From: a bacterium | GTDB taxonomy: Bacteria; UBA8248 | Reading direction: 5' to 3' | Assembly: GCA_965203325.1 (NCBI GenBank) | Contig: OZ241875.1 | Coordinates: 896,001-960,000 of the forward strand | Length of the DNA stretch: 64,000 bases | In this document: piece by piece, positions 28,276-35,229 of the stretch | Layout of the letters: each line of letters begins with the position of its first letter | Position numbering within the stretch: the stretch's first letter is position 1 | The notes under the pieces: model-generated | Told to the model about the DNA's origin: nothing | Databases searched by the model: none | The model's input: the letters and a program-made list of their open reading frames with translations, nothing else | Program-made: the position numbers and the translations under genes

Positions 28276-29791
28276 GGGGCTGTTGAAAAACCCCGTTTTG
28301 AAGCGGGAGGTATGGCGTCTCACGCGGCTTGGGAGAGGGAGCCCAATCGGCGCGTGAGGCCGCGGGGAACGCGCATTCGGCGTCTCAAGGCGGCGCAGGC
28401 TCTCCACAGAGCGAACAAACGCGCCGCAACAGCGGCGGCGAGCCGCTTGAGGTTCACCGCAGCCGCCGTCAGGTAGGCCTGGATCCTTATGTTCGCAAGA
28501 CCCCGGCGCACCGCCCGCGCCAGGCCGTGCCAACTCTTCGCCTCGCCGTGATAGCCTTCGGAGCGACCCATGTGCCGGCGCCACAGCCGACCCTCCTCCT
28601 CCCCACGGCGCGCGTGGCGGCGGCGCGCGCGCAACAGCGCCGGATACTCATGCGGAACCAGCACCGTCCGGCTCGTGCGGGACTTCGACAGACAATCGGC
28701 CCTGAGCGCGCAACCCGCGCAATCGCGCGTCCTCGATACATAGTAGCGACCCCACTCCGTCTCCTTCCGGGGGCGCAGCGTCTGGCCCCCCGGACACTTC
28801 ACCACCTTGTGACGCTCATCGTAGCGGAACAGCTGCAACGGCACCCGGCTCTGGGAAGGTTCTTTCTTCGCCGGTATCACCGCGTCCACCCCCCGACGCT
28901 CCAATGCGCCGTACACCTTCGAGTACGCATAGCCCGAATCCGCCGTCACCACCCCGGGCGCGCGCCCCGTGAGTTCGCAAACCGCATCCAACTGCGGCTC
29001 CATCATCTCCCGCTCGTTCAACGTCCCCTCCGTCACCGCAACGTCGAGGACAACGCCCCGCTCATCGTCCACCACCGCGTGATGCTTGTAGCTCGGCTCG
29101 AACCCCGCCCGAGCGCTCTTGCGCGCCAGGCGAGCGTCGGGGTCCGTTCGGCTCACAGGACCCGAACCCCCGCCGCCGCCCTTCTTCCCGCCCTCATCCT
29201 CCGAGTCGTTCTCCCGCACCACCTTCTCCGCGTGGCGCGCCGCCAGACTCTCCCAGCTCACGTCCGCCCGGATCAACGAAGCGTCCATGTGCACCACCTC
29301 TCCCGTCGCCACCTTCGCCTCCACGCAAGCCTGAACCGTGCGGCGCAATATCTCCTTGAACCGCGCCTCCCCCCAGCGCTGACGGATACGCGTCAGGCTC
29401 GAATGGTCCGGCAACTCCTCGTCCAGCCTGTACCCGATGAACCACCGGATCGCCAGGTGCGCCTGCGCCTCGCGCAACAGACGCCGGTCGTGGGCGTAGC
29501 CCAGCAGCAGGCCCGCCAGCATCAACCGAACCACCACCTCGGGGTCCAGGCCCGGACGGCCATTGTCCGCGCAATAGCACTCCGCCACCTCCTCGCGCAG
29601 CCAGCTCAAATCCAGTACGCGGTCCACCTGCCGCAATATGTGATCTTCGGGAATCAACTTCTCCAGCGGGCCGGCCACGAACAAGTCCATCTGCTCGCGC
29701 CTCTTGCGGTCCAACATCGAGGGAACTCCCATCTCGGGCGAGGGGGGATACATCCATACGATCACAAAACCAGGGGTTTTTCAACAGGCCC
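28276..29791 (-). mobile_element. IS1182-family insertion sequence
   Basis: Inverted repeats gggg/gggcctgttgaaaaacccc around a single transposase ORF; 28269-28294 and 29773-29798 form a 26-bp IR with one mismatch. Exact ends are ambiguous. Confidence 0.9.
28320..29717 (-). CDS. IS1182-family DDE transposase
   Basis: LIPEDH.L, GRP..DP, PDHSSL.R.R.R, HMDAS, S.TDPDA, ADSGY, CP.G..L...C..C.L...C Zn region, EG.HGEAK. Confidence 0.95.
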   Translation of the reverse strand: MLDRKRREQMDLFVAGPLEKLIPEDHILRQVDRVLDLSWLREEVAECYCADNGRPGLDPEVVVRLMLAGLLLGYAHDRRLLREAQAHLAIRWFIGYRLDEELPDHSSLTRIRQRWGEARFKEILRRTVQACVEAKVATGEVVHMDASLIRADVSWESLAARHAEKVVRENDSEDEGGKKGGGGGSGPVSRTDPDARLARKSARAGFEPSYKHHAVVDDERGVVLDVAVTEGTLNEREMMEPQLDAVCELTGRAPGVVTADSGYAYSKVYGALERRGVDAVIPAKKEPSQSRVPLQLFRYDERHKVVKCPGGQTLRPRKETEWGRYYVSRTRDCAGCALRADCLSKSRTSRTVLVPHEYPALLRARRRHARRGEEEGRLWRRHMGRSEGYHGEAKSWHGLARAVRRGLANIRIQAYLTAAAVNLKRLAAAVAARLFALWRACAALRRRMRVPRGLTRRLGSLSQAA

Positions 29792-31713: not shown

Positions 31714-32694
31714 ATGGTTTTACGTCCACCCGCAAAAGACGGCCCGCTCATCGCGGTCGCCGGAACGCGCTTCGGGCCCCCCACGGTCGAGGAGGAAATA
31801 CTCTCGCCTCTGGGTTCCCGCCTGCGTCTGGGCATGGGAGCGGACGCTGAATCCCTGGTTGAACTCTGCGCGGAGGCGGAAGGCGTCATCATCGGCTCGA
31901 TTCCCGCCTTCACCGCAGAGGTCATCGCTCGGCTAAAGCATTGTAAAATTCTCGCGCGCGGCGGCGTGGGCGTGGACAACGTCGACCTCGAAGCCGCAAG
32001 AGCGAAGGGCATTCCGGTCACCTCCGTACCCGATTACTGCGTCGATGAGGTATCGGATCACGCCATGGCGCTCATCCTCTACTTCGCCAGAAAACTCGAG
32101 GGTGGAATAACGGAAGTGAAAAAAGGCGGCTGGGGCATCGCCGCGCTCCGGCCCATCGCCCCGCTTCGGGGCGCGACGCTGGGCGTGGTGGGAATCGGGA
32201 GGATCGGCGCGGCTCTCGCCGGAAAAGCGCGCGCCTTCGGCATGCGGATCATCGCGCACGATCCTTTCGCGTCAGAATCCGCTTTCGAGAAGCTGGAAGC
32301 CGAGAACGCCGCGCTCTCACGTATTTGGGAGGAATCCGACTATATCTCACTCCACGCGCCCTTGACATCCGATACGAGGCGCATTGTGAACGCCGAAGCG
32401 CTCGATCGCATGAAGAAAGACGCCGTCTTGATCAACGTGGCGCGCGGCGAACTCGTGGACGAGAATGCGCTGGCCGATGCCTTAAAGAGAAACGCCATCC
32501 GCGGCGCGGGCCTCGACGTGTTGGAAGTTGAACCCCCGCGTCCGAATCACCCGCTGCTCGCCCTTCCCAACTGCCGCGTCACGCCGCACAGCGCGTGGTA
32601 CAGCACGGCGGCTCTCGAGGACATGCGGCGAAAGGCGGCGACAGACGTGTTGCGCGTCCTGCGGGGAGAGGAGCCGCGCTATCCTGTGAAATGA
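31714..32694 (+). CDS. D-isomer-specific 2-hydroxyacid dehydrogenase (CtBP-like)
   Basis: GVGVDNVD, VPDYC, GIGRIG, HAPLT, INVARG, LDV..EP, TPHSAW. Confidence 0.9.
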   Translation: MVLRPPAKDGPLIAVAGTRFGPPTVEEEILSPLGSRLRLGMGADAESLVELCAEAEGVIIGSIPAFTAEVIARLKHCKILARGGVGVDNVDLEAARAKGIPVTSVPDYCVDEVSDHAMALILYFARKLEGGITEVKKGGWGIAALRPIAPLRGATLGVVGIGRIGAALAGKARAFGMRIIAHDPFASESAFEKLEAENAALSRIWEESDYISLHAPLTSDTRRIVNAEALDRMKKDAVLINVARGELVDENALADALKRNAIRGAGLDVLEVEPPRPNHPLLALPNCRVTPHSAWYSTAALEDMRRKAATDVLRVLRGEEPRYPVK

Positions 32695-32720
32695 TTGTCC
32701 TTCGGGGGTAGCCTGCCGCG

Positions 32721-33569
32721 TTATTTTTCAATCGGAAAACCGACGATGCTCCCCCACTCCGTCCAGGAGCCGTCGTAAATCTTCACATCTTCATAGCCGA
32801 GCAGATACCGCATGGCGAACCAGACCAGACTGGCCCGGTGGCTGAGGCGTCAGTAGAGGACGAGTTCTATCCCGTCATCGGCCGCTGCGCCCGCGCCGCC
32901 GAGAATCCGGGCAAGCTCCTCCTTGTCTTTATAGGTGTCGTCCTCATTCAGCAGTTCCCGGAAGAACAGGTGCGCGGCCCCCGGAATGCGCCCTGCGCGC
33001 TCGGCCCCGTGGTCGAAGCCGGGCGGGGGCATCACACGCTCGCCCCTGTATTCCTCGGGCGAGCGCACGTCGAGCAGCACCCTGCCCGGCGCGCCCAGCT
33101 TCTCTCGAATATCGTCCCTGCCCACGCTCAAGACCTCGCCCCCATCCGGAGCGGGGTGAGAGACAGGCCCGGCGTCAGGAACGTCAGTCGAAACAGGCAT
33201 ACCGTCGGCAAGCCACTTCTTCTTCGAGCCGTCGAGCAGCTTCAGATTCGTGAAACCCGCCATCTTGAGGACCCAGAACGCGTAGGTTCCGAACTGCACC
33301 GGCTCGCCGTACAGGACGATTTCATCATCCGGCCCGACGCCCATCCCGCCCAGACGTTCGGCCAGGGCCTCGGAGGTTGCGAACGCGCGGTCCGTCTCGT
33401 GCCAGAGCGCCCCTTTCCAGAACCACCAGTGCGCGCCCGGCACGTGGGCTTCGCGGTAGGAGGCGTCGTCGCCTGCGGAGGACACCTCGATGACGTGAAG
33501 ATTCGGATTTCCCAGGTTTTCTGAGAGCCACGCCCCCGAAACGAGCGTGGCGCCATCGGTTTGCGTCAT
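32721..33569 (-). CDS. two-domain sulfurtransferase (rhodanese), probable selenoprotein (Sec at TGA 32850-32852)
   Basis: Reading through TGA gives [16 protein letters not shown]...YDGSWTEWG...PIEK* (TAA 32721-32723), completing the rhodanese C-terminal signature; U sits at the catalytic Cys position. Confidence 0.85.
32819..32839 (-). promoter_or_regulatory. bacterial SECIS-like hairpin
   Basis: accgggcc-agtct-ggtctggt: 8-bp stem (two G-U pairs) with a G-containing loop, 10 nt after the UGA. Confidence 0.65.
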
Positions 33570-33607
33570 ATCTCTATACCCTCATGATGAGAAAATAATC
33601 CGGTAAA

Positions 33608-35032
33608 TCACCCGCCGACCATGGCCGGCTTCTTCCGCCGGATGTCCGGCGTGGCTTCCTCGAACGCATGGGACGCCTGCAGCACGCGCGCTTCCTCCCA
33701 GGGCGGCCCCACGATCTGGATCGATACCGGCAGGCCGTCTTCGCTGAAGCCCGAAGGCGCCGCCATGGTCGGGAAACCGAAGAGGTTGTAGGGGCCGGTC
33801 TGCGGTCTGCCGAGGCCCGTGAAGAGATGCTCCTTCCCGTTCACCGTGCCCATTATCGTCGCAACGGGCCCCGCGGGACAGGGATAGCCGGGCGCCAGGA
33901 GTATATCGATCTCATCGAACACCTTCGCCATCTCGCGGGTGAGCGTGCGCCGTTCTCTCATGGCGTGCATGTATTCTTCCAGCGTCACGCGGCTCGAAAT
34001 TTCCAGGCGCTCGCGGACGTCGTCGCCGAATTTTTCCGGATGCGTCGCGAGCCGCTCGCGGTGAACCGCCGCCAGTTCGGCGCTGGCGATGATGCGGCGC
34101 ACATCCCTCATTCTATCCGCGTTCGGATAACGCACCTCTACGACCACGCCGCCCAGAGCCTTCATGGTCTCTATCGCATTCTCGAAGCCTTTCTGCACCG
34201 AAGCGTCGTTTTCCGGGAGATAGAGGTCCTCACAGACCCCGAAGCGCATCCCCTCGACGCCCGCACCTATCAGGGCGCAGAAATCGGGCGTCTCGCGGTC
34301 TTTGGAGCCTGCGTCCGCCGGGTCGTAGCCCGCCATGGCCTGCAGCATGATGCCGCAGTCGCGCGCCGTCCTGGCGAGCGGGCCGGCGTGGTCGAGAGTC
34401 GGGGAGTTCGGAAAAATGCCGCGAAGGCTCACGCGTCCGTAGGTGGGTTTCAGGCCCATCGTGCCGCATGCGCTCGCGGGTCCCCGGATAGAGCCGCCCG
34501 TATCGGTTCCCACCGCGCCGGGACACATATAGGCCGCCACCGCAGCGCCCGAGCCGCCGCTCGAGCCGCCCGATACCCGCTCGGGATTCCAGGGGTTGCG
34601 CGCAGGGCCGTAGTGGGGGTTCACCGTGGTGGAACCCGCCGCGAACTCGTGCGTGTTGCATTTGCCGACGACGACGGCGCCCGCTTCTTTCAGCTTTCTC
34701 ACGCACTCGGCATCCGCCGCCGGCACGTTATCCGGGAAGAAACTCGACCCCTGCGTGGTGAGGACGCCGGCGGTATCGATGATGTCCTTGATGCCGACCG
34801 GCACGCCGTGCAGAGGGCCGCGGTAGCGGCCGCCCTGAATCTCACTTTCCGCCTTTGCCGCGTCCTCGCGGGCTTCGTCCGCGCACACGGTGATGAACGC
34901 GTTGAGTTCGGGATCCAGGGTCTCGATTTGCCGCAGATGCGCGTCCACCACCTCGCGCGGTGAGACCTCTTTGCGCTCGATACGCCCGGCGAGTTCATAT
35001 ATTGAGAGAAAATTCAGTCCATCGGCGCTCAT
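33608..35032 (-). CDS. amidase-signature family protein
   Basis: GPLHGVP..IKD, GGSSGGS, GTDTGGSIR. Confidence 0.95.
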   Translation of the reverse strand: MSADGLNFLSIYELAGRIERKEVSPREVVDAHLRQIETLDPELNAFITVCADEAREDAAKAESEIQGGRYRGPLHGVPVGIKDIIDTAGVLTTQGSSFFPDNVPAADAECVRKLKEAGAVVVGKCNTHEFAAGSTTVNPHYGPARNPWNPERVSGGSSGGSGAAVAAYMCPGAVGTDTGGSIRGPASACGTMGLKPTYGRVSLRGIFPNSPTLDHAGPLARTARDCGIMLQAMAGYDPADAGSKDRETPDFCALIGAGVEGMRFGVCEDLYLPENDASVQKGFENAIETMKALGGVVVEVRYPNADRMRDVRRIIASAELAAVHRERLATHPEKFGDDVRERLEISSRVTLEEYMHAMRERRTLTREMAKVFDEIDILLAPGYPCPAGPVATIMGTVNGKEHLFTGLGRPQTGPYNLFGFPTMAAPSGFSEDGLPVSIQIVGPPWEEARVLQASHAFEEATPDIRRKKPAMVGG

Positions 35033-35229
35033 TTCGACCTCCATTCCACCTGTGTGAATTTCATATCGCTGCTATCGAGTTGATGAAACGCCACCTTACC
35101 ACGACGAGGCTAACCGCGCCTTCACCACAAGAGTTTCCTTCTTATGTCAAACGCGCGCTGCGGAATCACTACTCTTGAGAGTCAAAGCCGACAGAAGAGG
35201 GGAAGTTTACCAACCGAGAAAGCACGTTT

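Follow-up and report, generated by a model that had tools for sequence, protein, structure and literature searches.

The window, by which we mean the whole stretch of 64,000 nucleotides of a UBA8248 bacterium that was analysed, carries on its minus strand a coding sequence (32721..33569) that, judged from its sequence, is an intact two-domain rhodanese gene of the CysA/SseA type. It starts with an ATG at 33569, 9 nt downstream of a GAGGG (33579..33583, minus strand) that is likely the ribosome-binding site, and runs for 239 codons up to an in-frame TGA (32852-32850). As an earlier, sequence-only reading of this DNA had noticed, the frame stays open past this TGA for 42 more codons, without a further stop until a TAA (32723-32721), and when TGA240 is read as selenocysteine (Sec) the product has 282 residues. 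Two stretches of the read-through protein match PF00581 (E 1.8e-29). The YDGSW.EW signature that had been located beyond the TGA was found as YDGSWTEW at residues 265-272; it belongs to an 11-residue stretch (residues 262-272; 32754..32786, minus strand) that fits the C-terminal rhodanese signature [AV]xx[FY][DEAP]G[GSA][WF]xE[FYW], one of the two signatures given in PMC6856128. The other one, the N-terminal [FY]xxxH[LIV]PGAxx[LIVF], fits a 12-residue stretch of the protein except at its last position, which is W.

The six residues of the active-site loop, U-R-L-S-H-R, are encoded at 32835..32852 (minus strand), and the first of them is the TGA (32850..32852, codon 240), predicted to encode Sec. 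In the alignments this codon falls on the C of YCRIAER in 1UAR and of YCRIGER in 3AAX, and PMC6856128 describes the Cys of this loop as catalytic in CysA2. The Thermus-type rhodanese 1UAR aligns with residues 8-282 (E 1.8e-60) and the mycobacterial CysA/SseA proteins 3AAX and 3HWI match with E about 1e-54. These proteins share with the product of the window's gene the catalytic column, the Arg at loop positions 2 and 6 and the C-terminal signature, but they have a Cys in CRIAER or CRIGER loops instead of URLSHR. The placement of residue 240 was taken from the sequence match with 1UAR.

An amidase-signature gene (33608..35044, minus strand; PF01425, E 3.8e-118) lies 38 nt upstream on the same strand, and the two genes possibly share a transcript. 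The adjacency to an amidase gene, also pointed out earlier, thus holds at this locus, but it is kept only within the genus, since an amidase gene is found within 1.5 kb in 19 of the 20 full-length genus orthologs and in none of 8 Cys relatives. Within the genus, unrelated genes in convergent orientation are conserved almost to the same degree, and the amidase was not accepted as a demonstrated functional partner. A scan of 18 ORFs next to 6 Cys relatives did not point to a common pathway: luciferase-like, S24/HTH, CCG, NMT1, MFS and M20 proteins appeared once each, and CREG/DUF2470 in two. The region of the window between 30134 and 40211 is of a catabolic type, with a DUF1932 dehydrogenase, a ferredoxin, a D-2-hydroxyacid dehydrogenase, the amidase, a sarcosine-oxidase-like flavoprotein, a sugar epimerase and a hydantoinase B, and a 481-aa ORF (28320-29765, minus strand) looks by eye like an insertion-sequence transposase. 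Rfam, at the gathering threshold, gave only one tRNA in the window, and a promoter and terminator scan gave nothing above chance.

The pairing of TGA with Cys at the catalytic column, which the sequence-only reading had proposed to look for, is clear among the relatives. The genus includes 22 other genomes, 20 of which carry a full-length ortholog with 74-92% protein identity to the window's gene and one TGA each; in another genome the ortholog is split across two contigs, with the TGA present, and an incomplete one retains only residues 247-282, at a contig end. Column 240 is TGA in 21/21 full-length genus copies, the window's gene included. A codon-blind motif search over 51 genomes of the class gave matches in 42 of them: all 22 matches within the genus have TGA, and all 25 outside it, in 20 genomes of the same class, have TGC or TGT. 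Neither Cys nor a different stop turned up at column 240 in any genus member among the 51 class genomes of this search. The genus orthologs are kin and not independent events, and thus no P-value is given. The 42 codons after the TGA vary synonymously among the 21 orthologs and end at a stop common to all of them; this synonymous variation indicates that they are under protein selection.

The databases hold both forms. Full-length proteins account for 99 of the 120 best database matches, all of them with C-R-x-S-H-R, and the other 21 end one residue before the TGA position, which bears out the expectation that gene callers would truncate this rhodanese. An exact pattern requiring the TGA was run on one genome per species for 185,579 species. 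Of the 24 loci that it returned, 21 are orthologs (74-92% identity) and one is a Frankiaceae gene from another subfamily; the remaining two were dropped, there being no rhodanese at either. A similar pattern gave 3 loci in the JGI metagenomes, all 90% identical. With these exact patterns the URLSHR Sec form was not found beyond the genus in the 185,579 species genomes or the JGI metagenomes; being exact, the patterns would miss variants. Concerning the sequence itself, one contig from a sequencing run (X8), which may be the source sample, covers 32600-33133 with no difference. Contigs of relatives from two RNA libraries (X1 and X2), which do not show transcription, also cross the TGA, and none of the 40 differences listed, with 121 more outside the listing, falls on it; these contigs were not taken as evidence.

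A SECIS-type hairpin with a 9-bp stem and a folding energy of -12.0 kcal/mol (32819..32839, minus strand) starts 10 nt after the TGA, where the sequence-only reading had placed a hairpin of 8 bp. Counting the TGA as positions 1-3, it occupies positions 14-34. The stem is unbroken over its 9 bp, including several G-U pairs, and the GUC loop (32830-32828) begins 19 nt after the TGA; an alternative fold has 8 pairs and a 5-nt AGUCU loop. The legend of Figure 2 in PMC13188914 gives four criteria for such elements, which ask for a loop of 3-9 nt, a stem of 4-16 bp, a G in the first two loop positions, a spacing of 16-37 nt and an energy of at most -7.5 kcal/mol. We applied them with our own script, and the hairpin of the window falls within every limit (3 nt loop, 9 bp, G first, 19 nt, -12.0 kcal/mol). 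The script accepted 21/21 TGA orthologs and 0/6 Cys relatives; of 2457 Cys codons sampled genome-wide it also accepted 226, but an equally strong hairpin at the same spacing follows only 12 of the 2457. The earlier reading had held that close relatives with Cys only and no conserved hairpin would speak for a simple nonsense mutation; instead, TGA and hairpin are kept together in 21/21 orthologs. None of the refuting outcomes named by that reading was observed.

Compared with shuffled sequences the folding energy is unremarkable (z -0.6 to -1.4) and, these scores not being significant, they were not counted as support. Conservation and position do exceed chance, and the signs of selection on the RNA are better evidence than folding energy. 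An invariant run of 30 nt (32811..32840, minus strand) lies over the hairpin in 21/21 genus orthologs; it is the longest of the gene, the next longest having 14 nt. Among invariant residues with four or more codons, 5 of 5 are fixed on one codon in the hairpin versus 9 of 82 elsewhere, and codons 241-243 and 254-282 vary synonymously among the genus orthologs. The loop needs the Ser codon AGT, which makes up 5% of the Ser codons genome-wide. The SECIS of fdhF from E. coli (NC_000913.3) likewise has GTCTG at positions 23-27, at the same offsets from its TGA, and likewise forms a short stem within the coding region; the gene and the stem sequence are unrelated, however, and the stem of the window is an unbroken one of 9 bp with G-U pairs.

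The genome contains the Sec machinery that the sequence-only reading had suggested to look for, every component scoring over its cut-off: selA (C1:1932543; 571 bits, cut-off 268), selB (C1:1934868; 393 bits, cut-off 242), selD (C1:1726679; 333 bits, cut-off 125), which itself contains an in-frame TGA, and a canonical tRNA-Sec(UCA) (C1:1876711; 75.9 bits, cut-off 47), the sole tRNA with a UCA anticodon that was found. TGA is a normal stop genome-wide, where it ends 805 long ORFs, followed by a strict hairpin in 15 cases. A genome-wide heuristic gave 408 read-through candidates, 48 of which were chosen by motif and hairpin; 39 of these match families across the TGA, and 9 were rejected (8 without a family match and one consisting of two separate genes). 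Together with SelD and the rhodanese of the window, there look to be about 41 candidate selenoprotein genes, a lower bound, and most of them have a short hairpin at a similar spacing. The candidate families include AhpD/CMD-like, UGSC, OsmC, DsbA, deiodinase-like, GrdA, GrdB-like, SelW-like, Trx, Grx, Prx, ArsC-like, DsrE and DUF3179 proteins.

Since the TGA stands at the catalytic Cys of the relatives and is followed by a conserved RNA hairpin, Sec is very likely encoded here, and we predict with high confidence that codon 240 is decoded as Sec, which supports the earlier idea of a Sec enzyme with a U-RLSHR loop. From what is known of bacterial decoding, SelB together with Sec-tRNA would bind the G-U loop and deliver Sec at UGA240. 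Without Sec insertion a 239-residue product would be released that, because the C-terminal signature is encoded 3' of the TGA, would have neither the active site nor this signature. With good confidence, the full-length product can be predicted to be a CysA/SseA-type rhodanese that moves sulfane sulfur via a putative selenosulfide on residue 240. As in other members of the family, the selenolate would take the outer sulfur of thiosulfate or of a persulfide, and the sulfur would then pass to a thiol or to another acceptor, i.e., a two-step exchange in which a selenosulfide replaces the persulfide.

Sulfane-sulfur transfer is probably also the main activity of the enzyme. The Arg at loop positions 2 and 6 suggests a thiosulfate-type rather than a mercaptopyruvate-type enzyme. 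URLSHR keeps R2 and R6 of the thiosulfate-type motif CRxGx(R/T), with Ser replacing Gly at position 4, and because the loop departs from this motif as given in PMC6856128, any substrate is a guess. An assignment as MST does not fit, since the loop differs from CG(S/T)GVT and the NF008557 model gives 86 bits (cut-off 250). A possible alternative, to which we give a minor share of our confidence, is that Sec is inserted but the enzyme acts mainly with a thioredoxin-like partner to reduce persulfides or polysulfides, or as a selenium carrier through a perselenide. Such a role would also fit the recoding; only the substrate would be different. Most of the other candidate selenoproteins are indeed thiol-oxidoreductase-like (AhpD/CMD, DsbA, Trx, Grx, Prx, OsmC), the loop deviates from the canonical CRxGx(R/T), and selenium carriage by rhodaneses is mentioned in PMC9369223. 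On the other hand, the loop and the two signatures are the same as in the Cys relatives, which are annotated as sulfurtransferases, and the rhodanese gene is not adjacent to the sel genes.

It is very improbable that TGA240 is a true stop, whether through a nonsense mutation or in a deliberately truncated, inactive rhodanese. TGA does end long ORFs in this genome, and a form of 237-239 residues is present in the databases, but the same TGA is kept in 21/21 orthologs, down to 74% identity, the 42 downstream codons are conserved as protein up to a shared stop, and the genus members searched have neither Cys nor another stop in its place. Just as improbable is that a variant code, or a special tRNA, places Cys or Trp at UGA240. 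The ancestral enzyme would be restored by Cys, and ARAGORN gives an odd 95-nt tRNA-Cys(ACA), but this tRNA looks spurious because its stem is mispaired, the only UCA-anticodon tRNA found is the canonical tRNA-Sec, tRNA-Trp has CCA, TGA is a normal stop genome-wide, and Trp would abolish the active site.

Returning to Sec as the residue encoded by TGA240, its origin was approached through the living relatives. Two quick trees place all URLSHR genes together in a single clade (SH-aLRT 100) within the CRxSHR Cys sequences, and the window's gene shares about 60% identity with its Cys relatives. The genome has two further two-domain rhodanese genes, the second one (C1:236264-237100) with TGA at the catalytic column, the loop UQTGYR and a 7-bp hairpin, and the third one (C1:2304265-2305095) with Cys and the loop CQGGYR. 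The UQTGYR rhodanese is 43% identical to the CQGGYR one and 29% identical to the window's gene; in the quick trees it lies far from the URLSHR clade and groups with the Cys paralog, both paralogs being long branches. Since the two Sec genes are 29% identical, against about 60% between the window's gene and its Cys relatives, separate conversions are the simple reading.

The hairpin may also have been within easy reach. Each of 25 Cys genes of the class has 5-8 of the 9 pairs of this stem in register; the complete stem and G at position 23 both occur in 0/25, and the codon at the loop position is Thr (ACN) in 19 of 20 Cys genes of the same family. The conserved His-Arg-Ala...Val-Trp codons would account for the 5-8 pairs that the stem already has in Cys genes and, as we infer from living sequences, one C-to-G change, from Thr ACT to Ser AGT, would supply the G-U loop and so give the GTCTG of E. 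coli fdhF at identical offsets. The distribution and the tree suggest a single origin of the Sec form, out of a Cys ancestor at the root of the genus. We thus lean towards a recent, separate and genus-confined switch from Cys to Sec in the CRxSHR subfamily, whose origin would be readable from living relatives. Both selA and selB were detected in four genomes, Cys-bearing or neighbouring, from the family and class, and therefore the retention of Cys is not forced by missing machinery.

The Frankiaceae gene recovered by the TGA pattern belongs to a MAG (CAYNDD010000442.1, 453-492); it encodes a rhodanese of the CRIGER type whose catalytic column is TGA, and has a short hairpin with an AGT loop. 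No selA, selB or tRNA-Sec above cut-off was found in this fragmented genome, and the TGA may be an error, a pseudogene or a further conversion.

Sec sulfurtransferases had been reported before, as the sequence-only reading stated. A predicted Sec "rhodanese-related sulfurtransferase" of the COG2897/SseA family, with 3 Sargasso genes, was listed in 2005 (PMC1088965), and the same family appears in tables of PMC1976440, PMC2398784 and PMC9312934. Its members likewise have two domains, Sec predicted at the catalytic Cys and a SECIS just 3' of it. Five rhodanese selenoprotein forms are distinguished in PMC13188914, where the Sargasso one is "form 4, UxxG". Compared by these motif labels, the window's gene, with U-R-L-S, is UxxS and of the CRxSHR subfamily, whereas its paralog UQTGYR (C1:236264-237100) fits form 4. 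The rhodanese-like form 1 has the UxxS label in common with the window's gene. Form 3 (CxU, NF041203 rhodanese_LYCAU) and ExtH (NF040901) also combine a rhodanese domain with Sec, but the window's gene scores 35.8 of the 115 bits and 51.2 of the 200 bits set as their respective cut-offs. The published lists of Sec rhodaneses, as far as they were accessible, do not show the CRxSHR subfamily with Sec.

BSepDB counts three UBA8248 genomes, under the titles Nitrospinota, Nitrospinaceae or Nitrospinae, among its ten richest in selenoproteins, with 48-54 genes (PMC13326102, 2026). The accessible supplement text has no match for rhodanese, sulfurtransferase or UBA8248, and the rhodanese of the window may well be in that database already. 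A literature search, with subscription journals mostly outside its coverage and URLSHR not among its queries, turned up no biochemical work on a natural Sec rhodanese; in the published tables that were available Sec rhodaneses stand as predictions. Thus, a Sec rhodanese is not new in kind, and the gene itself would not surprise a specialist, but the URLSHR form is likely a separate, genus-confined switch.

The recoding allows the annotation to be corrected, given that the databases hold this protein as an inactive stub of 237-239 residues. Having Cys orthologs at about 60% identity and an fdhF-like hairpin, the gene lends itself well to expression in E. coli, where the contribution of selenium to sulfur transfer could be studied. 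As the Cys relatives have most of the stem, the easy origin of a SECIS in coding sequence becomes testable: if the proposed switch is true, a few point changes could suffice to create such an element within a gene, and two independently converted Sec rhodaneses and a Cys paralog in one genome would make a compact test case for the birth of a SECIS and the role of Sec in sulfur transfer.

Some other loci of this genome are worth recording. The stems of the tRNA-Cys(ACA) (95 nt; C1:3497434-3497528) and the tRNA-Ile(TAT) (C1:3687864-3687954) given by ARAGORN are mispaired, and both are likely false. Near C1:274175 (plus strand), a motif search found RLCH, with Cys instead of Sec, in what we take to be a formate-dehydrogenase-like motif, even though the genome is rich in candidate Sec genes. 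The gene at C1:2265222-2265674 encodes a sulfur-transferase-like protein (TIGR01244/PF04273) with a TGA in H-U-K-A-T-G-R-A, apparently at the catalytic Cys.
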